In this document: in pieces, positions 5,501 through 64,000 of the stretch
How the letters are laid out: every line of letters starts with the position of its first letter
Numbering within the stretch: the stretch's first letter is position 1
Origin: an uncultured Candidatus Saccharibacteria bacterium
Lineage (GTDB): Bacteria > Patescibacteriota > Minisyncoccia > Phycocordibacterales > UBA2135
Assembly: GCA_964348495.1 (NCBI GenBank)
Contig: CAYGCZ010000001.1
Location: 7,951-71,950 of the forward strand
Reading direction: 5' to 3'
Length of the DNA stretch: 64,000 nt
Made by a program: the position numbers and the translations under genes
Notes under the pieces: generated by a model
What the model saw: the letters and a program-made list of their open reading frames with translations, nothing else
Told to the model about the DNA's origin: nothing
Databases searched by the model: none

Positions 5501-5692
5501 GCCGCACATACGTTGCGCGAGATCCTCACCGTCAAATCGGACGACATCACCGGACGTTCCGCAACCTTCGACGCCATCATCAAAAACGAGGCGATGGACG
5601 AGCCGACGATTCCCGAGTCCTTCAAAGTATTGCTTAATAACCTGCGGGCGCTTGCGCTCGATGTCGAGTTGGTAGACAAAAAAACCAACTAA
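2504..5692 (+). CDS. rpoB: DNA-directed RNA polymerase subunit beta
   Basis: 1,062 aa. Hallmark blocks GPGGLTRERAGFEVRDVHPSHYGKVCPIHTPEG, NMQKQAVP and GGQRFGEMEVWALEGYGAA are present. Confidence 0.98.
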   Translation: MKKKYFKRYRDPRIGIPNLVEAQLESYQELQKSGISSLLKEFSPIRDYSEKKFDMEFTKFELGEAKRDEFYAKDHKLTYEAPLRVTVKLKNKTLGTENEQEIFLADFPLMTDHGTFIINGNERVIVSQLVRSFGVSFTSMPLKGKIYFGAKIIPSRGAWIEFESEPDGSIAVRIDKKRKFPISSLLRIFASEQNIFPKQDGSVDEALMAVFADDEHATAALKASFAKDTAKTTNDSYIEVYKRLRDGTLATADHARDFLATLFSAERYDLSRIGRYRFTQMFGEEHKAGDTDKLSFYDITAVVSHIAKLNNTPNAEADDIDHLGVRRVRFAGEMLHNRLRVGMTRIKRNVQDRMSTVDPETTLPMQLLNPRPLQTSLKEFFNTSSLSQYMNQKNPLDELEHLRTLSALGPGGLTRERAGFEVRDVHPSHYGKVCPIHTPEGQSIGLVLRLSIFARINDLGILETPYARVKNGVITSEIIYMDSLAEERHNIAHAATPSDEKGKISVDFVEVRTKDKRGEVTLVPVEEVEFIDIAANQPFSVATSLIPFLEHDDANRALMGSNMQKQAVPCIVPHMPLVATGMEGRAAVDSGRLVLAKESGVVAAMDASSVTVRNDKGKDIEHRMVNFARTNDFSVFHQRPIVEMGQKVKKGEPLADAASTVDGELALGQNVLVAFMSWGGSNYEDAIILSERLVRDSVFSSIHLEEIEVAVRDTKLGPEMTTPDIPNIGEGKLKDLDESGIVRIGAEVGPNDILVGKITPKGEAELTPEERLLRSIFGEKARDVKDTSKRMEHGKRGRIIGIREFSRERGDNLESGIIKRINVDIAQLRNVSVGDKLAGRHGNKGVISKSLPIEEMPYTKEGTPIDVILTPLGVPSRMNLGQILELHLGLAANTLKYQAIVPPFLGATEGEIREELKEAGFNENGKMTLYDGRTGEKFDQDIAVGYMYVLKLHHMVEDKIHMRSIGPYSLIHQQPLGGKAQGGGQRFGEMEVWALEGYGAAHTLREILTVKSDDITGRSATFDAIIKNEAMDEPTIPESFKVLLNNLRALALDVELVDKKTN

Positions 5693-5724
5693 GCCGACAG
5701 CTGGCAGTCATCTGTTCATCACCT

Positions 5725-9381
<3,657 letters not shown>

Positions 9382-25440: not shown

Positions 25441-25989
25441 ATGTATCAGATATCATATATCATATATCAGATATCGAAACAGGCGGGCCTGCCCGCCGCG
25501 CCTGCGCTCGGTCGTTCCTTGCGCTCCAGGGCGGGTTTTACCTTCATTGAACTCCTGATCGTGATCGGCGTTTCTCTGATTGTCTACGGCATGTCGCTTT
25601 CAGTATCGGTCCGCACTCAACCATCAATACAGGTAAGCGAATCGGCGGCGCATATCGTTCAGACGATTCGCATCGCCAAGAACGCAAGCCATGCGCGCTT
25701 TCACGGCGCGGCGCACGGGGTTTTCTTCGAAAATAATGCGACGAACAATGATCGCTATATCGCCTATCAAGGTGCCACCTACGCAACGCGCGATACGGCC
25801 TACGACAGTATCACCACACTGGATGCAGGGTTGTCGCTCTCAAGTACGTTCCCGTCGAGCGGCGATATTAATTTTTCAAAAGGGCTTGGCGTGCCGAGTG
25901 CCACGGGGACGGTATCGCTTATGCATGCTGTAACAGGTGAGACGAAGACCATAACCGTCAACGGCATTGGCGCGGTCAACAGTGATTAA
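25441..25989 (+). CDS. pseudopilin or minor pilin with prepilin-type N-terminal cleavage/methylation motif
   Basis: SRAG|FTFIELLIVIGVSLIVYG. The start was chosen at ATG 25441, within the longer ORF 25183..25989 that overlaps pilC. Confidence 0.7.
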   Translation: MYQISYIIYQISKQAGLPAAPALGRSLRSRAGFTFIELLIVIGVSLIVYGMSLSVSVRTQPSIQVSESAAHIVQTIRIAKNASHARFHGAAHGVFFENNATNNDRYIAYQGATYATRDTAYDSITTLDAGLSLSSTFPSSGDINFSKGLGVPSATGTVSLMHAVTGETKTITVNGIGAVNSD

Positions 25990-25990
25990 C

Positions 25991-28900
25991 ATGCAGAAGT
26001 ATACGCTTCGAAGAGGTCAGACGTTGCTGGAGGCGATCATCGCGATTGCGCTTTTCGCTTTGTTGGTGAGTGCGATGGTCTCAATCGGTACGGGTGGATT
26101 TGTCGGTATTGATCGCGGCGGTGATCAGACGGAGGCCGAGTCGCTCGCCCAGGAGGGATTGGAGGCGGTACGCGCCATTCGCGACGACGCATGGCGCCGG
26201 CTCGCCTTCTCCACGAGCTCGGTCGCCGTCTCCGCCGGCGGATGGATCTTCAGCGGGGAGGGGACGACGGAAACGGTCGGCGACTTCACCCGCACCATCT
26301 CTCTGCGCGATGTCTGCCGCGACGGGTCAAACAACCTTACCGCCTGCCCGGGATCCTTTGTTGATCTGCATACCAAAGAGATCGTCGTAACGGTAACCTG
26401 GCAGACCAGTACCGGTATTGTGAACAGTATAGAGCGTTCAATGTACCTCTCCAATTGGCAATCGCGCGATTGGACGCAGACCGATTGGTCGGGCGGCTCC
26501 GGCTTCACGACATGGTCTGATGCTACGCCCACCAGGTACAACCTCAACGACGGCGGCATCGACCATGCGACGGCGGGGCAATTCTCTATCGCGTCCGTTC
26601 CGTCGGGAGGGAGTATCGGCCGATGGATCCCCGGTGGCGGTACATCGGTTACCCATACTTCAGCATCACACTTTAATGCAGGGACGTTCGCGAGTACGAC
26701 AGTATCCGGCAGTGGTAATGCGGCTCTTGTTCAGCTTGCCACGCAAGTCCAATGGTCAACGTTTATCCCCACCTCCGAGAGCGGCGATCCGCGCGGATTG
26801 AACGACCTTGAATTCGGCTCCGACCTCGTCGTCTCCGAGTTCGGCTATGCTGTCGGTAAGAATGGAACCATCATGAAGTGGGATGGTGCATCATGGGGAG
26901 CACAGACGAGCGGCACTACTCAGGAGTTGCACGGCGTTTCTATCATGGACAGCGCGGACGTATGGGCTGTGGGCGATAACGGTACGATCATGCATTGGAA
27001 CGGTTTCAGCTGGTCGAGCGTGCAGTCGGCGTCGGTCAAGAGCCTGCTGGATGTCTTCTTGACTTCGGAGACTGATGGATGGATCGTCGGTGCAGGTGGC
27101 GATATTCAGCGGTGGAATGGCGCCATCTGGACAGCATTTATCTCACCGACGAGCCGCAACATGTACAGCTTGGATTTTGTGACCGTCAACGATGGCTGGT
27201 CCGTCGGTGCCAACGGCGAGATTATGCGCTGGAACGGTACGAGCTGGAGCGTTGTCGTCTCTCCCACGACTCAAGCACTCAACGACGTGCACCTCTACGA
27301 TGCTTCCAACGGATGGGCGGTAGGCAACAATGGCGCGATTCTGCGCTGGAATGGCACCATCTGGACATCGCAGACCGCCCCCGACAATACTGAGCTTTTC
27401 GGTGTCTATGCCGTCTCTGCGACGGAGGCGTGGGCGACGGGCAATAGCGGTACGCTCATTCACACCACTAATAGTGGCGCTACCTGGTCGCTCGTATCGG
27501 TCGCTACGAGCGACCCTCTGCGCGATATTTATATGATCAGTGCCTCCAATGGCCAGTTCGTCGGCGGTTCTCCGACCGTCCCCACCATTTTCCAATACGA
27601 CGGGGTGAATTGGACCGATATTTCAGGCGTCCTCAACAACGACGCCATTTACGACATATCAATGATCAGTTCAAGTGATGGTTGGGCTTCCGGCAACGCA
27701 GGACTCATTCTTCATTGGAATGGCAACGACTGGCTCTCGGTAACATCACCGACCAACAGCGACCTCCAGACTATCGACATGGTCGATGCTTCCAACGGTT
27801 TTGCCGCCGGACAAAATGGCAAGATTGTTCATTACAACGGCTCATCGTGGTCGTTGCAGACCTCGGGGGTGAGCGCAACCCTCTTGGGTTCATCTGCAGT
27901 AAGCGCCTCGACGGCATGGATCGTCGGCAACTCGGGCACGATCCTCAAGACGATAAATAGCGGCTCGACATGGTCTGCTCAGACGAGCCCTGTCGGTTCA
28001 AGTTTGCGGAGCGTCTATGCGGTGGATACCTCCAACGCATGGGCAGTCGGTGCGGCCGGCGTTATCTTGAGTACGAGCAATGGCGGTACGACATGGACAC
28101 AACGGACGAGCGGGACAACAAACACTCTCAACGGTGTGCATTTCGTGGACACATCCAACGGATGGGCGGTAGGTAATAACGGTACAATACGCAAGACCAA
28201 TAATGCCGGCGTTACTTGGACGACCGTAACGAGCGGCACGACCAACGACCTGCTTGCGGTGTACTTTACGAGCATCTCCGACGGTTGGGCAGTCGGTGTC
28301 AACAGCGTTCTTTTGCACTGGAACGGCGTCTCGTGGACGACGGTAACGTCGCCCGTTTCCGAAGATATGCATACGGTCGCGATGGTCAACGGCTCCGATG
28401 TCTGGGCCGCGGGTCAATCATCGGTCTTCATTCACTATGGCTTGTCATATTATCTTTCGGGTACCTTCACCTCCTCCGTTATAGACAGCGGGGATGTCTC
28501 GGCGAGCTGGGACTTCATCAAGTGGACGGAGAATATCAACGCCGGATGGACGGATATCACCGTGGATACGCGGACGGGTAATACCTCCACACCGGATGCT
28601 ACTTGGTCCGCCTTCGTCGGCGGGTATACCGATCCGCTTGGCGATCCGATCATCTCACCCGACAGCCGCTACATCCAATATCGTGTCAGTTTTACTACCA
28701 TTGATAGTCAACAGACATCAACCTTGAGCGACCTCACTATCGACTATAACAACCCCACAACACAAGATCTCTACGGCGTGGAGATGCTCTCGGCATCGTC
28801 GGGCTTCGCGAGTGGCGGCGCACGGACGGTCTTTGAATACGACGGCGTCGCGTGGAGCGAGCAAACGAGCGGCGCGGCGGTCATCATGCGCGATGTTGAT

Positions 28901-29929
28901 TTTGTTACCAGTTCTACGGGATGGGCCGTAGGTGACGGGGGTGTTATTATAAAAACGACCAACGGCGGTTCAAGCTTCAGCACGCAGACGAGCGGTACGG
29001 CGCTCAATTTGAACGGCGTCGCGTTTGTCGACGCAAACAACGGCTGGGCTGTCGGCAATACAGGGGCGATCCGCGCGACAGTAAACGGCGGCAGTACGTG
29101 GTCGGGGCAGACGAGTGGCACGACAGCGAACTTGCAAGACGTTTTCTTTGTCAGTACGACTGAGGGCTGGGCCGTTGGCGCGGCGGGTACGATCTTGCAT
29201 ACGGTAAACGGCGGCAGTACGTGGTCTTCCCAGACGAGCGGCACGACCAATGGATTGAACGACCTCTTTTTTACCGGCAGTACGACCGGATGGACCGTCG
29301 GCAACGGTGGCGTAATACGTCAAACGACCAACGGCGGCTCGACGTGGGTAGCACGCACCTCGCAGACGACCAACAATCTCTACGGTCTCGGCTTCTTCGG
29401 TACCAACAACGGCTGGGCGGTCGGCGCGGCGGGGACGATCATGCGCTATGCCGGTATTGACTGGGCACTCTTCACCTCGCCGGTAACGGTAGATCTCCAA
29501 GATGTATCATTCAGTACGGCGACCGATGGCTGGGGTGTCGGTGCAGGGGGTCTTTTCATTCACTTCACCATCAATGAAGTGGCGACACCCTACCTCACCT
29601 CCGGCGTGCTTACCTCATCGGGCTTTGACATGGGCGATACCCAAGCGGCTGTCAATACGCTCGACTGGGATGAGCTTATTCCCTCGTGTTCGCCCGTGTG
29701 CACCGTGCGCTTTCAGCTCTCCACCGCTCCCGACAGCGGGGGAGTACCCGGGACATTTAGCTCGTGGTACGGAGCGGCCGGTATCAATACCTACTTCACC
29801 CATGCGACGAGTGGGGTAGCGGTGCCGACCTCCCTGCCGACAAACCGCTGGGTGCGCTATCGCACACTCCTCGATAGCGACGGCAGTGCGACGCCGACCG
29901 TCTATGAGATGCGGCTTAATTATCAATGA
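25991..29929 (+). CDS. giant pilin-like protein: prepilin-type N-terminus followed by ~20 Ycf48/BNR-like beta-propeller repeats (putative pilus tip adhesin)
   Basis: RRG|QTLLEAIIAIALFALLV. Repeats of the form TxNGGxTWxxQTSGTTxxLxxVxFVDxxNGWAVGxxGTI are numerous. Confidence 0.75.
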   Translation: MQKYTLRRGQTLLEAIIAIALFALLVSAMVSIGTGGFVGIDRGGDQTEAESLAQEGLEAVRAIRDDAWRRLAFSTSSVAVSAGGWIFSGEGTTETVGDFTRTISLRDVCRDGSNNLTACPGSFVDLHTKEIVVTVTWQTSTGIVNSIERSMYLSNWQSRDWTQTDWSGGSGFTTWSDATPTRYNLNDGGIDHATAGQFSIASVPSGGSIGRWIPGGGTSVTHTSASHFNAGTFASTTVSGSGNAALVQLATQVQWSTFIPTSESGDPRGLNDLEFGSDLVVSEFGYAVGKNGTIMKWDGASWGAQTSGTTQELHGVSIMDSADVWAVGDNGTIMHWNGFSWSSVQSASVKSLLDVFLTSETDGWIVGAGGDIQRWNGAIWTAFISPTSRNMYSLDFVTVNDGWSVGANGEIMRWNGTSWSVVVSPTTQALNDVHLYDASNGWAVGNNGAILRWNGTIWTSQTAPDNTELFGVYAVSATEAWATGNSGTLIHTTNSGATWSLVSVATSDPLRDIYMISASNGQFVGGSPTVPTIFQYDGVNWTDISGVLNNDAIYDISMISSSDGWASGNAGLILHWNGNDWLSVTSPTNSDLQTIDMVDASNGFAAGQNGKIVHYNGSSWSLQTSGVSATLLGSSAVSASTAWIVGNSGTILKTINSGSTWSAQTSPVGSSLRSVYAVDTSNAWAVGAAGVILSTSNGGTTWTQRTSGTTNTLNGVHFVDTSNGWAVGNNGTIRKTNNAGVTWTTVTSGTTNDLLAVYFTSISDGWAVGVNSVLLHWNGVSWTTVTSPVSEDMHTVAMVNGSDVWAAGQSSVFIHYGLSYYLSGTFTSSVIDSGDVSASWDFIKWTENINAGWTDITVDTRTGNTSTPDATWSAFVGGYTDPLGDPIISPDSRYIQYRVSFTTIDSQQTSTLSDLTIDYNNPTTQDLYGVEMLSASSGFASGGARTVFEYDGVAWSEQTSGAAVIMRDVDFVTSSTGWAVGDGGVIIKTTNGGSSFSTQTSGTALNLNGVAFVDANNGWAVGNTGAIRATVNGGSTWSGQTSGTTANLQDVFFVSTTEGWAVGAAGTILHTVNGGSTWSSQTSGTTNGLNDLFFTGSTTGWTVGNGGVIRQTTNGGSTWVARTSQTTNNLYGLGFFGTNNGWAVGAAGTIMRYAGIDWALFTSPVTVDLQDVSFSTATDGWGVGAGGLFIHFTINEVATPYLTSGVLTSSGFDMGDTQAAVNTLDWDELIPSCSPVCTVRFQLSTAPDSGGVPGTFSSWYGAAGINTYFTHATSGVAVPTSLPTNRWVRYRTLLDSDGSATPTVYEMRLNYQ

Positions 29930-44534: not shown

Positions 44535-46199
44535 TCAAACAAGACCGCGCACCCCATCTTTTGCCTTCATGCCGGAAAGGGGAATGGAGATGAAAAAGAC
44601 CGTGCCGCGATGTTCGGTCGATTCGAACCAAATACGCCCACCGGATTGTTCCATGATCGCTTTGACGATATAGAGCCCGAGGCCCGACCCGTCCGGATCG
44701 ATCAATCGCGCGTTGTCGGCGCGAAACATCTTGGTAAATATCTTGCCTTGTTGTGCAAGAGGGATGCCATGCCCGGTGTCGCTCACTTGTATAATAAGTG
44801 AGGTATCTTCTCGTCGCGTTTCAACGGAGATCGAGCCGCCGGCATTGGTGTATTTGATCGCGTTAGAAAGGAGATTTTGGATCACGGCACGCACAAGTTG
44901 ATGATCCAGAAGGACCTCCGGTATCACCCCGTAGGACTTTGTCAGTGTCAGATGTTTATTCTCCATGATGCCGGCAACCTCGCGTAAGGTCTCTTCGATA
45001 AGTTCGTTGACTTGAAGCGGTTTGGGAACGATGGCGAGCGTGCCCAGCTCAATATGCATCGCATTCAACATCGCATTGACAAGGTGTAATAATTGGCGGT
45101 TGCTTGTGGTGATGCGCGAAAGTCCCTCTACGACAGGTTGAGGCAGGACACTGCCCGGATATTGCTCCAAGAGCATCGAACTGTATCCTCCGATGATGGT
45201 AATGGGCGTGCGGAGTTGGTGGGTGGCAAGCGCAATAAACTCTTCGCGCGCTTTTTTGAGTTCATATTCTTTGGAGATGTCGCGAAAGACGATAATGACT
45301 CCCATGAGTCTGCCGGTAGGGTTGAAGATGGGTGCCGCACTGTCGCCAAGGGGGATCTCCACGCCCGACTTGGTGGTAAGCAGGGTGTTGTTATTCATGT
45401 AGGTTACCCGCCTCAAGTCCATCGCTTCTTTGATAAACCCCATGTTCTCCGCGCGGTCTTCGGCGCGTATCAACTTCATGATATTGCGGAACGGTTTACC
45501 AAGCACCTCGTCCTTATCCCATCCGGTAATGCGCGTCGCACTGCGGTTCCAGACGGTGATCGTCCACTCGGGATTGATGACGACCACGCCGTCGCCGATA
45601 CTTTCAATGATCTGGTTTAAGTTGTGAAACTCGCGGTCGCGCAAGGTCGTCATGCGACGAACGGTCTCAGTCGCACCTCTCAGGAGGACATAGATGTTCT
45701 GCAAGGTCTCTTGATCGAACGATCCTTCATCGGGGGTGGAGAGGTTGATGAGTACAGCAAGTGTTCCGGGTATGATCAGGGGAACATTGACATGTGAACG
45801 AGGGGATGCTTCGAGCGCAAGGGCGGTAGTGCCGGTTGTGCGTATATCAAGACGGAAATCGCTCTTCAGCCATTGCTGAAGGATGGTTTCGCGCACGCTT
45901 GGCAGGGTTGAAAGACCCAGAAAGAGATCTTCTTTGATTGTTGCTATATACACTTCTCCAATCGTGTCAGTAGCGGGAACGCGGATGTAGAGTAAGTCGG
46001 CGGGGATGGAGGGATCAAGCGGCGCTATGGCATAACTGACGATAATGCGCGGGAAAAGTTTTTGAATCGCGGTCGTCACATGTTCCATCACCTCAGTCAT
46101 ATCAAGACTGCCGCTCAAGGCCTGGTAGAGGTTTTTAATCGCTTCAAGTTCGGCAACTTTGCGTTCAAGTTCAAGGGATGATCTGGTGATCGTGTTCAT
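44535..46199 (-). CDS. cytoplasmic sensor histidine kinase (GAF-like/PAS + HisKA + HATPase)
   Basis: H-box ATHQLRTPITIIGGY, G-boxes DTGHGIP and GSGLGL, and a PAS segment with WNRSATRITGW. Confidence 0.85.
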   Translation of the reverse strand: MNTITRSSLELERKVAELEAIKNLYQALSGSLDMTEVMEHVTTAIQKLFPRIIVSYAIAPLDPSIPADLLYIRVPATDTIGEVYIATIKEDLFLGLSTLPSVRETILQQWLKSDFRLDIRTTGTTALALEASPRSHVNVPLIIPGTLAVLINLSTPDEGSFDQETLQNIYVLLRGATETVRRMTTLRDREFHNLNQIIESIGDGVVVINPEWTITVWNRSATRITGWDKDEVLGKPFRNIMKLIRAEDRAENMGFIKEAMDLRRVTYMNNNTLLTTKSGVEIPLGDSAAPIFNPTGRLMGVIIVFRDISKEYELKKAREEFIALATHQLRTPITIIGGYSSMLLEQYPGSVLPQPVVEGLSRITTSNRQLLHLVNAMLNAMHIELGTLAIVPKPLQVNELIEETLREVAGIMENKHLTLTKSYGVIPEVLLDHQLVRAVIQNLLSNAIKYTNAGGSISVETRREDTSLIIQVSDTGHGIPLAQQGKIFTKMFRADNARLIDPDGSGLGLYIVKAIMEQSGGRIWFESTEHRGTVFFISIPLSGMKAKDGVRGLV

Positions 46200-46883: not shown

Positions 46884-48587
46884 CTATTGTTCAAGCACTT
46901 TTCGAAGCTGATCAACATATTCTTTGTTGCGACGGGCGGAAATAATACCCTGATCGCCAAACTCCTGGATGAGTTTTTGAATCCTGCTCGGTGAGAGGCC
47001 TTTGCGCTGTTCTTCTTTGAATATTTTTTCTCCCAATGGCCCCCATATTTCGGTGAGAAGGTCGCGGAGTTGTTCTTCGATGGTTTTACTCACTTTGCGT
47101 ACCTCTCCTCCAAGTGCGCCTTCATAACCGCTAAACGAGGTGAGTACCTGCAGACCCTTCTCGGTAAAGATGAACTCGCGCAGTTTTTTGTCGTGAGCGG
47201 AGGCGCGAATCTTCAAGAGCAGAACGCCATGTTTGATTTCGGATTGCACTTCGATGAAACGCAGAAGAACGATCGTATCGTAGAAGGTTGAAAGATGCGC
47301 CTCAGTGATCTCGCCTGCGCCGAGGATACCCGATGTGGCGGCGGTGAAATATGATGTGGTACCTTTGTTTTTGCAGTAATTGATGAGGCGCGATGAAAAA
47401 TCGGGAAGACTTTCGGGGGTAAAGACATGTTCCAATGCCGACAGTGAATCTACAACAATACGATCAGCGTCAGATGCTTCCAGTGCTCGGGTGATGGATT
47501 GCAGGTGTTCTTCCATGTAACGCTCCTCGGGATAGGCGCAGATAATCTGCAAAAGACCCTCTTTTTCAAAGCGGGCGAAGTCCCAACCGAATGAGCGTGC
47601 CGTGTGCATCAATTGATCACGCGACTCCTCAAAAGAGACGAGTAAGGCGCGTTCGCCCCGCTTCAAGCCGGAAGCAAGAAAATGAAGACCCATGATGGTC
47701 TTACCCGTACCCGAGGCGCCGCTTACGAGAATCGTCGATCCCTTAAGATAGCCGCCACCCGTCATGGCGTCTAAACCTTCAGGACCTGTGGATATCCGCT
47801 CTTCCGAGATGGGGTAGGATAATTCGCGCTCCAAACGAGGGAAGATGGCGATGCCGGTACGACTGATGCGAAAAGCAGCAGGTGATTGCTCGTAATCAGT
47901 GCCGCGCATCTTCACAACTTCAAGTTGGTGGCTTGAAGCACTTCTTGTTTTTACGAAGGATAGGCGGATGATGCCATCGGAGATGAACTCTTCTGTCCCG
48001 AAAACGCTCAACTCGGCTCCGGGTGTTTCGCTCGTGAGGATGATGTTGACATCCTGTTGGGAGAGGGCGGTGCCGATCTGGAAGATGAAGTCGCGGACCT
48101 TGCTCCTGTCCTTCAAATGGTAGGCAATCGCAGTAACGGAATCCAAAACAACGCGTTTTGCTCCCGACTGGGCGACCATATTTTTTATGGTCTCCACAAT
48201 ACGCCCTATATCCTCAAACGAGAACTCATCTTTGGTGATGTCGAGACCCTGCATGATGCCACGCAGGTCGGTGAAGTACACCTGCAGAGGCCCCACGGCG
48301 GTAGGATCGAAGAATGCTAGTTTTTTGGCGTTGCGTATCGCCTTGGCGACCGGCTCCGTAAGTGAGATATAAATACCCGGCTCGTGATATTGTTGATAAC
48401 CCTCAAAGAGCCATTGTGTCGCCAAAATAGTCTTGCCGGTGCCGGACTGTCCCGACAGGAGGACGGCAGATCCGATAGGAATTCCGCCATGGAGGAGATG
48501 ATCAAGTTCAATAATGCCGGTTTGTTGTTGACCGCGCGTCGTATCGCTCACCCCCGTCGCAGTATGCAAGGTCATGTTGTGGGTCAT
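46884..48587 (-). CDS. kaiC: KaiC-family double RecA-domain ATPase
   Basis: Two domains with Walker A LLSGQSGTGKT and VSGASGTGKT, and Walker B VVLDSVT and IVVDSLS. Confidence 0.8.
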   Translation of the reverse strand: MTHNMTLHTATGVSDTTRGQQQTGIIELDHLLHGGIPIGSAVLLSGQSGTGKTILATQWLFEGYQQYHEPGIYISLTEPVAKAIRNAKKLAFFDPTAVGPLQVYFTDLRGIMQGLDITKDEFSFEDIGRIVETIKNMVAQSGAKRVVLDSVTAIAYHLKDRSKVRDFIFQIGTALSQQDVNIILTSETPGAELSVFGTEEFISDGIIRLSFVKTRSASSHQLEVVKMRGTDYEQSPAAFRISRTGIAIFPRLERELSYPISEERISTGPEGLDAMTGGGYLKGSTILVSGASGTGKTIMGLHFLASGLKRGERALLVSFEESRDQLMHTARSFGWDFARFEKEGLLQIICAYPEERYMEEHLQSITRALEASDADRIVVDSLSALEHVFTPESLPDFSSRLINYCKNKGTTSYFTAATSGILGAGEITEAHLSTFYDTIVLLRFIEVQSEIKHGVLLLKIRASAHDKKLREFIFTEKGLQVLTSFSGYEGALGGEVRKVSKTIEEQLRDLLTEIWGPLGEKIFKEEQRKGLSPSRIQKLIQEFGDQGIISARRNKEYVDQLRKVLEQ

Positions 48588-55973: not shown

Positions 55974-57779
55974 ATGGAACAGCACTACACTATTGAAGAC
56001 TTTTTATACGTACATTCTGCCGGAGGCGGTTCTTTTAGTCCCGACGGTTCACATATTGCATACCTAAGCAATGAGACAGGGACATGGCAAGTTTTTCTTA
56101 TCCCGACAGTAGGTGGTGATTCCGAGCAGCTTACCCATTTTCAGGATCCTGTATCATTCGTGCGCTTCTCTCCCACTGAGAACATTTGTATATTTGGAAA
56201 AGCTGAGAATGGTAGTGAACAGACACAACTCTTTCTTTTTGACCTTAAGACGCGAAAAAGTACACAGATAACTACAGCACCAAACATGCAACATCGTTTT
56301 GGTGGATGGTCACCAGATGGGAAATATATCTGCTTTGCATCAAACGAAAGAAATGGCGTAGATTTCGATGTGTATACCTTGGAGATTGCAACGAAAAAAA
56401 AGATATGTGTCTTCACTATGGGTGGCAGATGCTTTGCGGAAGGCTTTTCTCCGCGCGGTACATACCTTGTTGTGCGAAAAGTGCATGCCCACGCCAACAC
56501 AGATCAATATCTCTGCAACCTCGCAACAGGCATAATCACCAATCTCACTCCTCACGACGGCGATGTCGTACATGAGGGATCTTTTTGGCTTCCGGACGAA
56601 TCAGGTTTCTTTCGTCTGGAGAATACAGACAGGGAGTTCGTCGGCCTTGCGCAGTACTCGATACGTGAACGATGCTCGCGATATGTACTTACTCCAGATT
56701 GGGATGTTGAGGATGTTGCAGTAGATAAACATGGCAAAAAGATAGCGGTTGGAATAAATAACAACGGCTCCCGCGAAGTAACGCTCTACGCCATAGGCAC
56801 ATACGATACGCCTGCCTGCACGTTGTCGGATAACGCACTCTATCAAATACAATTTTCTCAAGATGGCTCACACATAGCATACAATAAGGGCGGCGCACGG
56901 CATGCTCTTGACCTCTGGGTGCTTAACATCGTCAACGAAACACAGTGCCAACTTACACACAGTAATCAGGGTGTTCCTGCGAAAATAATGATTGAGCCGG
57001 AAATGATACACACTACATCATTCGACGGGCGCTCTATTCCCGCGTACCTCTATAAACCAAAAAGACGGAAGAGTGAAAAACAACTCCCCGTCGTTATGTT
57101 TATCCATGGCGGTCCGGATGAGCAATTCAGACCACTCTACCACCCTATCTTGCAGTACTTGGTTTATAGCGGGTATGCGGTTGTTGCTCCAAATATACGT
57201 GGAAGTGCGGGGTATGGTAAGACCTACATGACACTTGATAATAAAGAAAAGCGCATGGATTCTGTAAAAGACATTGTCGCCGTGCGTGATTATATAGCGA
57301 ATGATTCTGACTTAGATGAAGATACCATTGCGCTCTATGGGATAAGCTATGGTGGCTTCATGGTCTTGGCATCCATGGCTTTTTATCCAAAGTTATGGGC
57401 GGCGGGAATTTCTATCGCCGGCATATCCAACTTTGTTACATACATGGAACATACCGCCCCCTATCGACGCATGTTGCGTGAAGCTGAATACGGCTCTTTG
57501 GAGCACGACAAAAAACTCTTGGAAGCACTCTCGCCCATTCACTCAATTCAAAACATACAGGCCCCTTTATTACTTATCCACGGCGCGAACGATCCGCGTG
57601 TCCCACTTGCAGAAGCAGAACAGGTTTTGAAAGTACTAAGGAGTGAAAAAAAAGAGGTTGACCTGCTCGTGTATGACGATGAAGGGCATGGTCTTGCAAA
57701 ACGTAAGAACAAGCTTGATGCCTACCCTAAAATGATTACGTTTCTTAACAAGGCGATAGGGTTATCTGACAGGCTCTAA
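55974..57779 (+). CDS. S9-family serine peptidase (prolyl oligopeptidase / acylaminoacyl-peptidase type) with N-terminal beta-propeller
   Basis: GISYGGFMV nucleophile elbow, with D and H in HGANDPRVP...DDEGHG. Confidence 0.88.
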   Translation: MEQHYTIEDFLYVHSAGGGSFSPDGSHIAYLSNETGTWQVFLIPTVGGDSEQLTHFQDPVSFVRFSPTENICIFGKAENGSEQTQLFLFDLKTRKSTQITTAPNMQHRFGGWSPDGKYICFASNERNGVDFDVYTLEIATKKKICVFTMGGRCFAEGFSPRGTYLVVRKVHAHANTDQYLCNLATGIITNLTPHDGDVVHEGSFWLPDESGFFRLENTDREFVGLAQYSIRERCSRYVLTPDWDVEDVAVDKHGKKIAVGINNNGSREVTLYAIGTYDTPACTLSDNALYQIQFSQDGSHIAYNKGGARHALDLWVLNIVNETQCQLTHSNQGVPAKIMIEPEMIHTTSFDGRSIPAYLYKPKRRKSEKQLPVVMFIHGGPDEQFRPLYHPILQYLVYSGYAVVAPNIRGSAGYGKTYMTLDNKEKRMDSVKDIVAVRDYIANDSDLDEDTIALYGISYGGFMVLASMAFYPKLWAAGISIAGISNFVTYMEHTAPYRRMLREAEYGSLEHDKKLLEALSPIHSIQNIQAPLLLIHGANDPRVPLAEAEQVLKVLRSEKKEVDLLVYDDEGHGLAKRKNKLDAYPKMITFLNKAIGLSDRL

Positions 57780-57798: not shown

Positions 57799-58593
57799 GT
57801 GCATAATAAAGACATGCGGGCGTTTCTTGTTGAGTTCTGGAGTTTCTTTGTCGCCAATCTGCGGGCGACGTATTTTGGCGTCTTTCTCCTCGCCATATTC
57901 TTGGCGACTGAGTTTGTTACCGTGCCGTTTATAAGCCGCTACGACCTCATTTTTCTTTCCGCGGTCGCTTTCCAGATTGTGGCTTTGGTGTTTCGGTTTG
58001 AACGGTTGCGAGAGTTTTTTGTGATCATCATCTTCCACTTCTTGGCGACGATCATGGAACTGTTCAAAACACATCCCGCAATCGGCTCATGGACCTATCC
58101 GGGGGTGGGGGAAGCGGTCTTCGTCATCGGCACTGTGCCGCTCTTCGCCGGTTTCCTCTACTCCGCGGTCGGAAGTTTTATCTCGCGCGCCTTTGTCTTT
58201 CTCAAACTCTCCTATGAGCGCTTTCCCGCGTATAGCCACGTATGGGTGCTTGCGACACTTATCTATCTCAATTTTTTCACGCACCATTTTTTCTACGACA
58301 TACGGTACCTCTTGTTTGCATACATCGCCGTCATCTTTTGGCGTACGACGGTACATTTTCAGGTATCTGCAAAGCGGCGCAGTATGCCCTTTTTGGCAGC
58401 CGCTTTTTTCACCGCGCTGTTTGTCTGGGTCGCGGAGAATGTGAGCACCTTCACGCATATCTGGCTCTATCCAAGCCAGCTTTCCGGCTGGCACCTCGTC
58501 TCCCCGGAAAAAATCGGCTCATGGTTCCTCTTACTCATCTTGAGCTTTGCGCTCGTGTCGCTCATATACAGGGATACGTTGAAAAGGGGGTAG
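57799..58593 (+). CDS. DUF817-like polytopic membrane protein
   Basis: About 8 TM segments. Its last 28 codons lie within the 88-bp direct repeat. Confidence 0.55.
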   Translation: MHNKDMRAFLVEFWSFFVANLRATYFGVFLLAIFLATEFVTVPFISRYDLIFLSAVAFQIVALVFRFERLREFFVIIIFHFLATIMELFKTHPAIGSWTYPGVGEAVFVIGTVPLFAGFLYSAVGSFISRAFVFLKLSYERFPAYSHVWVLATLIYLNFFTHHFFYDIRYLLFAYIAVIFWRTTVHFQVSAKRRSMPFLAAAFFTALFVWVAENVSTFTHIWLYPSQLSGWHLVSPEKIGSWFLLLILSFALVSLIYRDTLKRG

Positions 58594-58600
58594 GGGGGTG
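58513..58600 (+). repeat. 88-bp direct repeat, left copy (3' end of the DUF817 gene)
   Basis: About 94% identical to 61250..61337. Confidence 0.9.
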
Positions 58601-58662
58601 GCGCGCACTGTAGAGAGATGGATAAAAAAAGATCGCCTTGAGGAAGGCGATCGTATGTAATC

Positions 58663-59739
58663 TTATACACAAAGGAGGCGGCGTAGCGAGGTAATCGACA
58701 TAGTATCGATATTCTTAACGACAGTATCGCGCATCTTCGGAAAAATACTTCCATGCAGCGCGAACTCCTTTCGTCCTGACAGCGCCGACCACAACAAGGC
58801 GTTTGTGATGCGTACAGAACCAAAACGTTCAACAGACTGCCCTATGGTTACCACACCATGAATGGGGATGAAAGATACTTTTGGAAGGCAGTAGATATGT
58901 GTCGGCACAGGTACTTCGATGAGTGCTGAGACGGCCGAGAGTATTGCCGCTTGATGAAGTATCGACGTGCCGACCACGAGGTGTGTGAGGATGTATTTTT
59001 TTTCAGAAAGCCATTTTGAAAAAAACCACCACACCAAATCATTGTCGATATTCCAATCATATCCGCCAAGTCGCACACTATGTCTTCGGGGGGTACTGCG
59101 CGAAATCAAAAGTCTTGCTCCTGCGAGTTTTTTCATCTTCGCCTCAAATTCTCGCGCGGCCCATGAAGGGAATACTTTTGGCGTGGAGGGTTTCGGCAAT
59201 GGCGCTGTAACAAGCACCTGTTTGCGAATTTTTATGATACGCGTATGGCAACACATCGAGTATCCCTCATGTACGAGCGTCTTGGAACCGTACAAATCGA
59301 TACCATCAAAGTATTCGATCATACCGCATGAACATCGACGAATATTGCGAGTTTCTACGCCGATCAAATTCTTCTTAAAGAGGGTTTGCAACAAAGTACT
59401 CATGGAGTTGTGGTCGATAGTTTCATCGTTCCATCGGACATTCGGTTGTATACCAAGAATATCCAACGTACTCTCCATGAGATGAATAGTCGATACATCC
59501 GCACTCTTTCCAAGGGTGTTTAATGCCGCTATCGTCTGCATATTCTCTGTCATACCGAGATGGTAAACAAAGGAAAATAAGCTGTAGAACCCGGGCTTTT
59601 TTGCATGGGATGGAGATACGGGAAGCGTGGTTGCCACTGGAATCATCGGAATGTCTCCTTTGTGATTGTCGTCTGTGGACGATGGTAGCACATGGTAGAC
59701 GCTACGGGAAGTACAACAAGGAACCTCAACCAATCTCAC
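58663..59739 (-). CDS. hypothetical protein with C-x-C...CC cluster (unknown family)
   Basis: 358 aa. 14-nt overlap with the upstream NTase gene. It has HLGM...KMKKL, which faintly echoes class-I aaRS HIGH/KMSKS motifs, but this is not trusted. Confidence 0.4.
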   Translation of the reverse strand: MRLVEVPCCTSRSVYHVLPSSTDDNHKGDIPMIPVATTLPVSPSHAKKPGFYSLFSFVYHLGMTENMQTIAALNTLGKSADVSTIHLMESTLDILGIQPNVRWNDETIDHNSMSTLLQTLFKKNLIGVETRNIRRCSCGMIEYFDGIDLYGSKTLVHEGYSMCCHTRIIKIRKQVLVTAPLPKPSTPKVFPSWAAREFEAKMKKLAGARLLISRSTPRRHSVRLGGYDWNIDNDLVWWFFSKWLSEKKYILTHLVVGTSILHQAAILSAVSALIEVPVPTHIYCLPKVSFIPIHGVVTIGQSVERFGSVRITNALLWSALSGRKEFALHGSIFPKMRDTVVKNIDTMSITSLRRLLCV

Positions 59740-61243
59740 TAAGTAATGCGCGGAGACGCGGTCGCACGAGTCTGCGATCTTTGTGAAGTGAGAGGTGTCC
59801 TGTGGGAATCTCCTCCAGACGGATTCCCGTGGAGGCGCAGAATGTCGTTGTTGTATCGGGCGGTATGGTTTTGTCGTAGGTACCCGTTACAATGGAATAT
59901 TTCTTCGCGTTGATTGATTTGTCATCCATGAACCTGGAAAGATCGAGCCACTTGCCGGTTAGTAATTTTTCCCAATCGGTGGTGGTGCAACGATATGCCA
60001 TAGGGAAGGTTGTCTCAAGGTACGCAAAGAGAGTTTCCACTTTTGGTACGTCAGACATTCTCAGGGGAGGTGAGAGGGCGATAACGTGCGCTATTGCCTC
60101 ATCAAAACCGGCACAGAGTGCAACCAGTCCGCCAAAACTTGCTCCAATGACCACAACCTTGTCGTACGCGGCCATGTTTGTGTCGTGAAGAGCAATACCA
60201 TCTTTGAGCCCATGCGCCAAATCTATAACATCGCGTGTCGGATCGTGATCAAGAAACACCCCTGCCGACTCCCATGTTCCTGTAAGTCGTGGAAAAAATG
60301 CGGCATACCCCCACGAGGCGAGGACGGCAAGAAATTCCGAGAGCTCCGGTTTGCGCGGCAACCCGTCCAAGACGATTATTGCCGTTGATGTCGGTTTCTC
60401 GGGGAGGAGGTATTCACAAACAATACCCTTATAGGTCATCCGCGACGGAGAGCGGCTCGTGCCGGGAAGCATTGATTGTGCTGAAAAAAGCGCGACCGTA
60501 TATATTTTTTCATACAGCGCCATAAAGATCGCGATATCATCGGGCGTTCTTTCGGTAAGGATGCGCCAATCTTCCTCATTGAGTACGTCGGGAAAACATC
60601 GTCTGAATACTTTTGATATATCTGAAGTGTTTGCGGTTATTTTTGACAGGTCTTCTCCGATAAGGAGCAGCAGATCAAGCATTACTCGTTCTATGTGTTT
60701 TGCATGATATTCGGGATTTCGATCTTTATTATGTCTCCCACCGCCCAGATACTCTTGTCGCGCTTGAAAGACATATCGTTGTATGCGATTGATCAAACTG
60801 GTAATCACCACGTCTTCACGCGGAGCGTCTTTTGCAAAAGGATTTTTGCCGTAGAGGGGGGTTGCCTCAGCAAGAATATGTATAAAAAACGCACCGTGAG
60901 CATCAAGCGAAAACAAGTCGGGAAAAGAAGATTCTTCAGGATAGAACAGCTGTAGGTCAAGTGTTTGCTCGGAGTATTTTTGTTGTATTGTTTGAAGATC
61001 GGAGAGGTCGTCTAGGGGAGAGGTTTTCTCCTTGATCAATACAACCATATCCAGGTCCCAAAATGTCTCATTAACCCGGGAGCTTCCATAGAGCAATACC
61101 GCGTCGAGGCGAGCACCAAACAACGTCACTATTTCTCGTGATATTTCTTCCGCGATTGTTGGAATTGGGGGCTTGGTAAGCATAGTACGTATGGTACAGT
61201 AAACCCGTTTGTTTTTAAACATTTGATAGATTGCACCAGCCAA
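59726..61243 (-). CDS. Pol-beta-type nucleotidyltransferase domain fused to alpha/beta-hydrolase domain
   Basis: NTase motif LLYGSSRVNETFWDLDMVV (GS...DxD). Hydrolase motifs VVIGASFGG (GxSxG), later Asp, and C-terminal GHLSLH. Confidence 0.7.
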   Translation of the reverse strand: MAGAIYQMFKNKRVYCTIRTMLTKPPIPTIAEEISREIVTLFGARLDAVLLYGSSRVNETFWDLDMVVLIKEKTSPLDDLSDLQTIQQKYSEQTLDLQLFYPEESSFPDLFSLDAHGAFFIHILAEATPLYGKNPFAKDAPREDVVITSLINRIQRYVFQARQEYLGGGRHNKDRNPEYHAKHIERVMLDLLLLIGEDLSKITANTSDISKVFRRCFPDVLNEEDWRILTERTPDDIAIFMALYEKIYTVALFSAQSMLPGTSRSPSRMTYKGIVCEYLLPEKPTSTAIIVLDGLPRKPELSEFLAVLASWGYAAFFPRLTGTWESAGVFLDHDPTRDVIDLAHGLKDGIALHDTNMAAYDKVVVIGASFGGLVALCAGFDEAIAHVIALSPPLRMSDVPKVETLFAYLETTFPMAYRCTTTDWEKLLTGKWLDLSRFMDDKSINAKKYSIVTGTYDKTIPPDTTTTFCASTGIRLEEIPTGHLSLHKDRRLVRPRLRALLSEIG

Positions 61244-61249
61244 GTCAAG

Positions 61250-61337
61250 ATCGGCTCATGGTTCCTCTTACTCATCTTGAGCTTTGCGCTCGTGTCGCTC
61301 ATATATAGGGATACGTTGCGGAGGGGGTAGGGGGGTG
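61250..61337 (+). repeat. 88-bp direct repeat, right copy (orphan duplicate of the DUF817 3' end)
   Basis: Encodes ...IGSWFLLLILSFALVSLIYRDTLRRG* with no upstream gene body. Confidence 0.9.
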
Positions 61338-61948: not shown

Positions 61949-62668
61949 TTATTGCTGATGTTTTTTCCATGATTCAATCTTACTATTGAGGGTTTCAAGA
62001 ATACTATCAAAAATAATATCGGGGGCTTGTGAGGCGTCTATACTGACTATTCTTTCTGTTATTTCAAGTGGTAATCTCTTGCGAGCATTATAAAAAATAT
62101 CATATGAATCTTCTATTAATTTCCTTCTGAATTCAAGTTTAGGATCGGCAGGATCAAGTCTTCCCAATATAACTTCTTTTTCTGCGGTTAATTCAAAAAT
62201 AACATCGGGCAAAATATCGTCGAGGATAATCTTTTCTCCACGCTGGATAGGATAAAGATCTGAAATTAAAAGTATGTCATTAGCTGGATTATCTCTATCT
62301 ATTACAAATGATGCTCTTGATAAAAGAGACCGATCCAGAAGTGCGACTTGCTTATTAAGTACCCGTGCTTTCATTCGCCACTCCTTCATCTCTGTAACAA
62401 GTTTATATGCAGCCTCATGCCATTCTTCTGTGGTGCCTTGCTTACGAATTTTTTTGGCGTTCTCTTGCCACCAGATGTCAAATGGATCACCGTCGTGTGA
62501 ACCAGTGCCTTCTCGAGTACCATCTCCGCGTAACTCAACAAAATCAACATCGAGTTCTTTGAAAACTTTTTTTAGAAGATCTATCTGTGTTCCCTTTCCG
62601 ACACGATTAATACCTTCAAATGCTATGGTAGAAAGATCATTTGATTGATTCCTGAAACTTTCTTTCAT
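61949..62668 (-). CDS. thymidylate-kinase-like (dNMP kinase fold) protein with atypical P-loop
   Basis: AFEGINRVGKGTQ, versus the Tmk consensus IEGIDGAGKST. The gene is AT-rich. Confidence 0.55.
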   Translation of the reverse strand: MKESFRNQSNDLSTIAFEGINRVGKGTQIDLLKKVFKELDVDFVELRGDGTREGTGSHDGDPFDIWWQENAKKIRKQGTTEEWHEAAYKLVTEMKEWRMKARVLNKQVALLDRSLLSRASFVIDRDNPANDILLISDLYPIQRGEKIILDDILPDVIFELTAEKEVILGRLDPADPKLEFRRKLIEDSYDIFYNARKRLPLEITERIVSIDASQAPDIIFDSILETLNSKIESWKKHQQ

Positions 62669-63059
62669 AAGCGTTTTTTATTACATCGGAGGTCTTTGGT
62701 GTGAATTCCATATTTTCCATATTTTCTATAGTCATCCACGAAACTTCCTCCGTATCTTCTAAAGCTTTCGGTTCTCCTGATTCATAATCTGCAGTATAGA
62801 CGATGTAGACCATTCCATATATTTCTTTTTCTTTTATATTATTCTGAATCACGCAAAAGTTTTTTATTTTTATGCCAACCTCTTCCATAACTTCACGCTC
62901 TAACGCAGACTCTAGGTTCTGATCGCTCATATCTACCGTTCCGCCGGGAATACCCCATAATCCAGGAAAAACATCTTCCTTCATTGATCTTTTAACAATA
63001 AGCACCTTATCGTTATTGAAAATTACTACTGATACGTTAACTTTGAAAAATTTTGCCAT
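62637..63059 (-). CDS. NUDIX hydrolase
   Basis: Nudix box GGTVDMSDQNLESALEREVMEEVGI. It overlaps the Tmk-like gene by 32 nt. The start was taken at ATG 63059. Confidence 0.85.
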   Translation of the reverse strand: MAKFFKVNVSVVIFNNDKVLIVKRSMKEDVFPGLWGIPGGTVDMSDQNLESALEREVMEEVGIKIKNFCVIQNNIKEKEIYGMVYIVYTADYESGEPKALEDTEEVSWMTIENMENMEFTPKTSDVIKNAYERKFQESIK

Positions 63060-63063
63060 ACGC

Positions 63064-64000
63064 TTATATTTTAAATGTCTGTTCATTTTCTTCTATTGAA
63101 GATAGAAACATACTTGAAATTATTTTAGTGGTTAATAATTGATTCTCGATAAGAGTATTGCTTTGAGTATCATTTGCAAGGAATTTCTTGAAAATAATAT
63201 ATCGGGAAGTCTCATTCTGACCGAGATATTGAGGTAGGTCGGCATGATACTTATGATATATTTCTTGAACAAAGTTCCTAGTATCGAAAGATTTACCTCC
63301 AATCAACTTATTATTTCTAAAGAGGTTAATCTCTTGATGTTCTATGCCACCTACATCATATTTCGAATGTTCATCAACCCTTGCTGATTGATATGAGTGA
63401 AGCTGAATATTGAATAGCGGACCGATATGTAAATTAATATACTCATGCCTAAGACGACCATTCCCTTTATAGGTGTCCTTAGGAAGATCATACCATGCAC
63501 GACCAGAGAAACCAGACTGGAGCAGGTCTAGGTGTCCGAAAGAAACCACGTTCTCTCTATTGATTGGATATTCGCCATTTCTCAAGAAAAAACGTGTATA
63601 CGAGTCAACTTCGCCCATGTACATATTGGAGGGTTCATCAGTATCCTTTTCGAATAATCGCTTAAAAAGTTCCTTGCCTCCTATCTGCCTATAGTGAGTC
63701 TGTGGTTTTATGAGCTCTGTCCTATTGGAGAGATAAAGCATGGGTAGAATTACTTTATTTGTTTCTATTATCCATGCGACAATATCAATAAAATGATATC
63801 CAGAGTGCATGATTTTCCCATAACCATATTTATAAGGGTGATTCTCTCGAGAAAGATACTCTTCAGGCATATTCCACTGACCATCAGAGTGATGAATGTT
63901 AAAGAATGTGATTGGTATACCGTACTCCTTCACAATCTTAAGAGCTTCTTCGAAGATAAAAATATACGCTGGATGTTCTCGTCGTTGGGCTAAAACATAA
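63064..64000 (-). CDS. hypothetical protein, 5'-truncated by the window edge
   Basis: The reading frame stays open to position 64000; the GTG at 63933 is only an internal candidate start. No family was recognised. The region is AT-rich. Confidence 0.4.
   Translation of the reverse strand, partial: YVLAQRREHPAYIFIFEEALKIVKEYGIPITFFNIHHSDGQWNMPEEYLSRENHPYKYGYGKIMHSGYHFIDIVAWIIETNKVILPMLYLSNRTELIKPQTHYRQIGGKELFKRLFEKDTDEPSNMYMGEVDSYTRFFLRNGEYPINRENVVSFGHLDLLQSGFSGRAWYDLPKDTYKGNGRLRHEYINLHIGPLFNIQLHSYQSARVDEHSKYDVGGIEHQEINLFRNNKLIGGKSFDTRNFVQEIYHKYHADLPQYLGQNETSRYIIFKKFLANDTQSNTLIENQLLTTKIISSMFLSSIEENEQTFKI

Follow-up and report, generated by a model that had tools for sequence, protein, structure and literature searches.

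What substrate could call for a nucleotidyltransferase (NTase) joined to an esterase, with a gene behind them that resembles a tRNA synthetase lacking its catalytic motifs? This question is raised by a two-gene operon on the minus strand of a 64,000-nt stretch of DNA (hereafter, the window) from an uncultured Candidatus Saccharibacteria bacterium (GenBank assembly GCA_964348495.1, contig CAYGCZ010000001.1, positions 7,951 to 71,950). The first gene encodes an NTase-helical-esterase fusion protein, and the second encodes a partner resembling the core of a class I aminoacyl-tRNA synthetase (aaRS). We consider it very probable that the operon is mobile, that the fusion protein is intact, that its partner is a disarmed class I aaRS core, and that the modules act as a unit.

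The open reading frame picked out in an earlier, sequence-only reading of the window (59726..61243, minus strand; 505 aa counted from TTG 61243) was found to be real, but its likely start is ATG 61183, which lies 20 codons inside the frame and on which the public gene call (P0001) and all homologs agree. With this start, the fusion gene spans 59726..61183 (stop codon 59726-59728) and encodes 485 aa; residue numbers follow P0001. The equivalent start is used by the 20 full-length homologs, which come from independent Patescibacteria assemblies, share 42–48% identity, and are 446–499 aa long. The identical fusion sequence was found in three independent sources. The single-chain predicted model was confident (predicted template modeling score, pTM, 0.86) and is consistent with domains held in a fixed arrangement. 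Only 249 relatives (E ≤ 1e-3) were retrieved from 1.84 billion representatives with the N-terminal profile.

The sequence-only reading had described an NTase, a helical region, and a serine hydrolase in one chain, and had named two objections: a frameshift fusion of two genes, and a pseudo-enzyme without conserved catalytic residues. Profile matches, conserved catalytic residues, and recurrence all bear out the domain reading and a genuine fusion. Because the same architecture was present in 47 of 168 family proteins (local domain scan) and the catalytic residues are kept across homologs, both objections fail: the protein is neither a frameshift artifact nor a pseudo-enzyme. Judged by conservation, both enzyme domains are catalytically intact. 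In the 20 full-length homologs, the YGS and DxD motifs, D76, the GxSxG elbow, D437, and H463 were all invariant, with the exception of the elbow in P0020 (L003:8001-9341; L numbers denote loci and P numbers proteins). This protein has lost GxSxG by a deletion of approximately 30 residues and is intact elsewhere; it may be a naturally esterase-dead variant, or the deletion may come from an assembly error.

The NTase core is of the Pol-beta type (aa 1-118, 60830..61183, minus strand), as indicated by profile matches, motifs, and the model. Its motif reads LLYGS-x8-DLDMVV and contains the hG[GS] residues G33-S34 (61082-61087), the first carboxylate D43 (61055-61057), and the second carboxylate D45 (61049-61051); the third carboxylate, D76 (60956-60958), lies on the strand formed by residues 74-80. 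The pattern hG[GS]x9-13Dh[DE]h reported earlier is present, but with a spacing of 8, one below the range given. Across 25 fused and split relatives, G33, D43, and D45 were each conserved in 25/25, position 34 was Ser in 19 relatives and Pro in the other 6, and position 76 was Asp in 18 and Glu in the remaining 7. H96-G97 and N114 are likewise invariant or nearly so. The predicted order of elements in the core is helix-strand-strand-helix-strand. Against solved structures, a profile built from the first 245 residues matched 9xbd_E (4e-5) and kanamycin NTase (KNTase; 1.8e-3), and a profile of the 95-sequence family matched 9xbd_E (4.7e-9), streptomycin 3''-adenylyltransferase (1e-6), and KNTase (6e-5). 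Pfam Polbeta was matched by 51 of the 95 family members and NTP_transf_2 by 28. The window protein alone had no Pfam match for its NTase part, and its only match was to Abhydrolase_6 (28.5 bits). The features of the Pol-beta superfamily (hG[GS] and DxD motifs, third carboxylate, and profile similarity) were all found. The helical domain that follows (aa 119-240, 60464..60829, minus strand) has near-invariant Y137, K162, and D170. Together, core and helical domain form a module of approximately 240 aa (NTH), with boundaries taken from split homologs of 225–250 aa.

By sequence, the NTH module resembles both the aminoglycoside nucleotidyltransferase (ANT)/KNTase and the MNT families, but is a member of neither. 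Of the proteins with solved structures, KNTase and AadA (ANT(4') and ANT(3'')(9)) rank among the module's closest relatives by sequence, and they are likewise units of approximately 250 aa in which a Pol-beta core precedes a helical domain. However, PDB alignments to NTH end after the first 55–80 residues or so. Unlike KNTase and AadA, NTH is fused to an esterase, is tied to a synthetase-like partner, and has its own near-invariant residues (Y137, K162, and D170) in the helical domain. No NCBIfam family was matched by the window protein, and no aminoglycoside-NTase model was among its matches. The MNT proteins of HEPN-MNT pairs share the NTase core, the best PDB match being the 120-aa NTase 9xbd_E, and both occur in a mobile or accessory context; however, the HEPN motif Rx4-6H is not conserved in the NTH helical domain, and no HEPN partner was found in the window. 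The window protein does contain R155-x4-H160, but relatives have R, N, K, or H at position 155, and 8 of 26 show gaps in this segment. The match to HalB of the Hailong system was marginal (E = 0.03) and confined to approximately 28 residues of the universal NTase core, and the window contains no HalA partner.

The C-terminal domain (aa 245-485, 59729..60451, minus strand) is an alpha/beta-hydrolase of the carboxylesterase-like kind, as indicated by Pfam, the model, and sequence relatives. The nucleophile elbow GASFGG and the C-terminal His that had been noted from the sequence proved to belong to a conserved triad: nucleophile S349 in G347-A-S349-F-G351-G (60137-60139), D437 (59873-59875), and H463 (59795-59797). 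Among 27 system-linked esterases, D437 and H463 were each conserved in 27 and S349 in 26 (the exception is P0020); the elbow Ser was also found in 55/55 related stand-alone esterases. The GxSxG elbow, the Ser-Asp-His order, and the fold are all canonical. The best sequence relatives were PET46/MHETase-like enzymes (6e-13), FphH, and feruloyl/cinnamoyl esterases. The Est30/FphH/feruloyl-esterase/PET46 group (Pfam Hydrolase_4, Peptidase_S9 catalytic domain) is 12–19% identical to the system esterase, which is set apart by two family-specific motifs, G-T-W304-E305-S306-x-G-x-F-L, a signature loop with an invariant acidic residue, and Y397-R398. Relative to approximately 55 related stand-alone esterases of approximately 250 aa, 24 of the 27 system-linked esterases form one clade. 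The stand-alone esterases carry the same motifs, and no conserved neighbors of theirs were found. On this sequence evidence, the domain is a bona fide alpha/beta-hydrolase esterase with a subfamily of its own. Two genes away from the cassette lies the gene for a separate, canonical alpha/beta-hydrolase (55974-57779), an S9 peptidase of 601 aa whose N-terminal part is a beta-propeller (Tricorn/PD40-like); its match to the system esterase is weak (5e-6).

The partner gene (58663..59646, minus strand; 327 aa) begins 79 nt downstream of the fusion gene. An AAGGAG ribosome-binding site (59655..59660), read from the sequence, precedes its ATG by 8 nt, and a strong intrinsic-terminator-like hairpin (58631..58652; 9-bp stem and T7) directly follows its stop and ends the two-gene operon. 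Its structure was predicted from a 4-sequence alignment, and conservation was assessed in a 15-sequence alignment (19–48% identity). The predicted fold is a Rossmann-fold catalytic domain with a connective insertion, and fold matches include MshC and the MetRS-like domain of PyrN. No Pfam, NCBIfam, or PDB sequence match was found (two partner profiles against PDB). In the 15 homologs, no His of a HIGH motif is conserved (only P9, P12, and G19 of that loop are), and the KMSKS loop is absent, the corresponding region reading LPKV, LPYV, or VPAY with only P255 invariant. The 327 aa leave no room for an anticodon-binding domain, because the core comprises residues 1-300 and the last 30 were modeled with low confidence. 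Invariant positions are C105, C107, C132, C133, D74, S182-R183, D201, and K293, and D203 and W206 are near-invariant; from their position, the four Cys are predicted to form a Zn knuckle. The core thus retains a putative Cys4 knuckle along with invariant residues of a putative pocket. The partner is consistently basic (median pI 8.7, vs. 5.9 for the fusion protein). By motif criteria it is not a true aaRS, and its predicted fold identifies it as a disarmed pseudo-synthetase core. The closest known kind are truncated or repurposed class I aaRS cores such as GluQRS (YadB), MshC, and the MetRS-like domain of PyrN-type enzymes. The cyclodipeptide synthases, which are aaRS-like without HIGH and KMSKS and take aminoacyl-tRNA rather than activating amino acids, offer a conceptual parallel. 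Comparisons by hhalign with a real GluRS (Prob 2.5%) and with the window's own CysRS (Prob 0.1%) were topologically sensible but not significant, and were not used as evidence. A further homolog search with the partner profile returned only 4 proteins, and a metagenome scan returned 2 truncated loci.

A scan of GTDB species genomes gave 230 related loci, and gene arrangements were obtained from 80 of them with local hidden Markov models for NTH, the esterase (ABH), and the partner (PAR), iterated on the loci. In approximately 25 loci, from Patescibacteria and from DPANN archaea, the three modules occur together, and every gene order is represented. The fused NTH-ABH gene is followed by PAR in the window, L001-L014, and L018, and faces a convergent PAR in L015 and L019; in all related loci inspected for it, the gene directly downstream is a partner homolog with 39–40% identity, and exceptions among the wider set of loci are given below. 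Three separate genes were also observed, in the orders PAR/NTH/ABH (L029 and L085), NTH/PAR/ABH (L032), ABH/PAR/NTH (L039), and PAR(-)/NTH/ABH (L033). A representative search added PAR-NTH fusions (P0057, P0074, and P0121), and reversed ABH-NTH fusions were found in P0062, P0069, P0080, P0090, P0161, and P0163. In L093 and L096, the missing third module adjoins the fusion and completes the triad. The sequence-only reading had proposed split-gene homologs as a guide to functional linkage; they were found, and they confirm it. Because the modules co-occur in many orders and are fused to one another, they can be regarded as one functional unit. Hosts include Kaiserbacteria, Paceibacterota, Saccharibacteria, Zambryskibacteria, and Woesebacteria among Patescibacteria, and Woesearchaeota and Nanoarchaeota among DPANN archaea; a few metagenome-assembled genomes were labeled otherwise.

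Several variants of the system were observed. The order NTH/methyltransferase/ABH/PAR occurs in L016 and L017, from Saccharibacteria and Zambryskibacteria, in which a class I S-adenosylmethionine (SAM)-dependent methyltransferase (UbiE/MenG-like, 2.5e-16; L016:4704-5375 and L017:857-1516) lies between the NTase module and the esterase. An extra, canonical PF01909 NTase is fused ahead of NTH in L022, L024, L025, L027, L034, and L046; these proteins (L022:2924-4441, L046:2810-4441, and relatives; 506–544 aa) represent a Woesebacteria/DPANN variant in which the system-type NTase reads GP in place of GS. NTH is also fused to a NUDIX hydrolase (P0050, P0058, and P0112), to a K+-channel-like pore domain (Ion_trans_2, with a TIGFGD filter; P0151 and P0154), and to a GNAT acetyltransferase (P0144), in each case with no esterase in the same protein. 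The PAR-NTH protein P0057 belongs to a run of genes on one strand (L091:268-8026), in which a full-length IleRS and a type I phosphodiesterase precede it and a PfkB-family kinase follows. On either side of P0074 is an uncharacterized P-loop ATPase-like protein (L094:779-2413 and 4485-5804; Walker A motifs GTGKT and GKT), surroundings that look like a defense-island-type context.

The operon is bracketed in the window by two 91-nt direct repeats with 95% identity. Copy 1 (58510..58600), on the partner side, is the 3′ end of a DUF817 gene (57799-58593), and copy 2 (61247..61337) repeats this 3′ end as an orphan directly upstream of the fusion gene. An unrelated 92-nt repeat pair (3008-3099 and 5957-6048; 97% identical and 2949 nt apart), consisting of a gene 3′ end and a terminator hairpin, brackets the homologous cassette in L014. 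Flanking repeats of this kind were absent in seven other loci examined. Neighborhoods are unrelated between loci (groEL, ftsA, xfp, and others), and transposase or recombinase genes lie near the system in L093, L061, and L008; the cassette itself has no integrase gene. The L014 pair is independent of the window pair, and these data suggest that a mobile cassette of approximately 2.7 kb inserts at gene 3′ ends by an integrase-less mode that duplicates approximately 90 nt. No relatives were found on viral contigs. A 2741-nt Logan contig equivalent to the cassette was considered as a possible circular form; this was rejected, because the contig ends fall inside the two repeats. Beside the cassette, positions 62000-64000 have a GC content of 36%, vs. 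46–58% elsewhere, and may be a foreign island; the region holds genes for a NUDIX protein (62637-63086) and for a dTMP-kinase-like protein that falls below family cut-offs (61949-62668), and a GFO/IDH/MocA-type oxidoreductase gene is represented by its 3′ part.

Our preferred reading, to which we assign a probability of roughly 0.35, is that the complex acts on an aminoacyl-ester/3′-adenosine substrate such as aminoacyl-tRNA. Two features that the sequence-only reading had missed, a disarmed aaRS-like partner (the more informative of the two) and a mobile-cassette context, shift the likely substrate toward a molecule of the aminoacyl-ester or adenosine type. Given the precedent of the cyclodipeptide synthases and an esterase of the carboxylesterase type, the simplest joint substrate would be an (amino)acyl ester on adenosine. 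That this substrate may be tRNA we infer indirectly, from the partner fold, the loss of the ATP motifs, and the basic pI. The partner core would be the subunit that recognizes an aminoacyl-ester/3′-adenosine-type ligand, for which the acceptor end of aminoacyl-tRNA is the likeliest candidate and an aminoacyl-nucleotide another. Once the esterase had cleaved the (amino)acyl ester, the NTase would nucleotidylate the freed hydroxyl (3′-OH). The substrate would be modified or inactivated, as by an accessory conflict or growth-control module on a mobile cassette. A more specific form is put forward tentatively: a three-module conflict system of the ultra-small Patescibacteria and DPANN archaea, spread as a cassette, in which an aaRS core without its ATP chemistry guides the aminoacylated tRNA 3′ end to the esterase for deacylation and to the NTase for 3′-end blocking. 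GNAT enzymes are known that act on aminoacyl-tRNA, and the NTH fusions to GNAT, NUDIX, and ion-channel domains fit a conflict-system toolkit, but fit small-molecule modification equally.

Several observations weigh against aminoacyl-tRNA or a related molecule as the substrate. The sequence similarity of the partner to true aaRS was not significant in PDB profile searches or by hhalign, so that its pocket-residue equivalences are only putative, and its basic pI may mean no more than that it binds the acidic fusion protein. Among solved structures, the NTases closest in sequence act on small molecules (aminoglycosides), and the nearest esterase relatives work on small aromatic or lipid esters. 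The triad is incomplete in L061, which has NTH and ABH with no PAR within 4 kb, and in L091 and L094, where PAR-NTH fusions have no esterase nearby. Rfam and tRNA scans of the window showed no tRNA or structured RNA near the cassette. Finally, no antitoxin or regulator was apparent, although one would be expected for a toxic tRNA-modifying system.

The most serious rival, which we consider possible although rather unlikely, is small-molecule modification or detoxification, in which the target is a xenobiotic or antibiotic that NTH would O-nucleotidylate and the esterase de-esterify. It is close to the antibiotic-modification idea of the sequence-only reading. In its favor are the best solved NTase relatives, aminoglycoside and streptomycin adenylyltransferases of the same NTase-plus-helical size, an esterase nearest to small-substrate carboxylesterases, and a mobile cassette typical of resistance genes; the NTH-GNAT fusion recalls bifunctional resistance enzymes, and the SAM methyltransferase inside the operon of L016 and L017 points the same way. 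Truncated class I aaRS-like enzymes with small substrates are also known, MshC and the PyrN MetRS-like domain being among the fold matches of the partner. However, no NCBIfam ANT or resistance model was matched, a three-protein complex with fusions between modules would be unusual for resistance enzymes, and the hosts are episymbionts, for which no exposure profile is known. A plausible target would be an aminoacyl-nucleoside or aminoacyl-adenylate mimic aimed at tRNA synthetases, with the partner as a binding or decoy subunit, but the partner lacks the ATP motifs that give much of the affinity for adenylate mimics.

Less well supported, and in our view improbable, is a nucleotide-based regulatory or defense module in which NTH self-primes or nucleotidylates a protein Tyr in the manner of HEPN-MNT or Hailong HalB. 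Equally improbable is its extension, in which NTH controls an effector (the esterase, an ion channel, or others) and the synthetase-like protein is the sensor. The near-invariant Y137 in the helical domain would suit such a role. The ion-channel-NTH fusions (P0151 and P0154) echo the described HalA/HalB pairing of Hailong (PMC13434031), and turnover of a nucleotide product is conceivable for the NUDIX-NTH fusions. The mobile and variable context, with P-loop ATPases beside PAR-NTH in L094, is also consistent with this role, as are the weak NTase-core matches to HalB and to a candidate minimal NTase of PADLOC. In PADLOC-DB 2.0, however, no system was matched: the partner and the esterase matched nothing, and the NTase core matched the candidate PDC-S09 weakly (1.8e-6). 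No known defense family was matched, the cassette was not found on viral contigs, the helical domain does not conserve the Rx4-6H motif, and the similarity to HalB does not extend beyond the short segment of universal core. Such a module would also leave the conserved synthetase-like pocket without a role.

We doubt still more that the operon is a short biosynthetic pathway that makes or tailors an aminoacylated or nucleotidylated metabolite or a cell-envelope component, and the assignment of roles that this entails (ligase or transferase for the synthetase-like protein, acyltransferase for the alpha/beta-hydrolase, and an activating or tailoring function for the NTase) is just as doubtful. 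MetRS-like and CysRS-like natural-product and thiol enzymes (PyrN and MshC) are among the closest partner folds, and methyltransferase, kinase (PfkB), and phosphodiesterase neighbors occur occasionally; nevertheless, the loss of HIGH and KMSKS speaks against ATP-dependent ligation, the neighborhood has no conserved transporter or other pathway genes, and a two-gene mobile cassette is small for a pathway. The chance that the fusion is an artifact, through frameshift, misassembly, or decay to a pseudo-enzyme, is negligible: the P0020 deletion and an NTase part below the Pfam threshold in the window protein are outweighed by 47/168 proteins with the same architecture from independent assemblies, identical sequence from three sources, conserved catalytic residues, and a confident single-chain model.

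Two further features were observed elsewhere in the window. One is a 1320-aa protein (25967-29929) with six BNR/Ycf48-like repeat matches, an unusual size in so small a genome. The other is a possible clock-like or signaling module in this Patescibacteria-type genome, where a KaiC-like double-domain ATPase (46884-48587) is encoded near a PAS histidine kinase (44535-46199).

The three folds are individually familiar, and their association in one system is previously undescribed in the sources searched: neither the searchable literature nor Pfam, NCBIfam, or PADLOC yielded a description of an NTase, an esterase, and a disarmed class I aaRS core in combination. To our knowledge, synthetase-like proteins that have lost both HIGH and KMSKS are rare, and the case that is understood, that of the cyclodipeptide synthases, opened a new aminoacyl-tRNA-dependent chemistry. 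If the preferred reading holds, with aminoacyl-tRNA or a related adenosine ester as the substrate, the operon would be a second such case, joined to nucleotidyl transfer and ester hydrolysis, and a new enzyme system for direct tests. The cassette is small and self-contained, which makes it suited to heterologous study, and its flanking duplications of approximately 91 nt hint at integrase-less cassette insertion in the host genomes. If true, the preferred reading may reveal a new control of tRNA or aminoacyl-nucleotide pools in poorly understood episymbiotic microbes.

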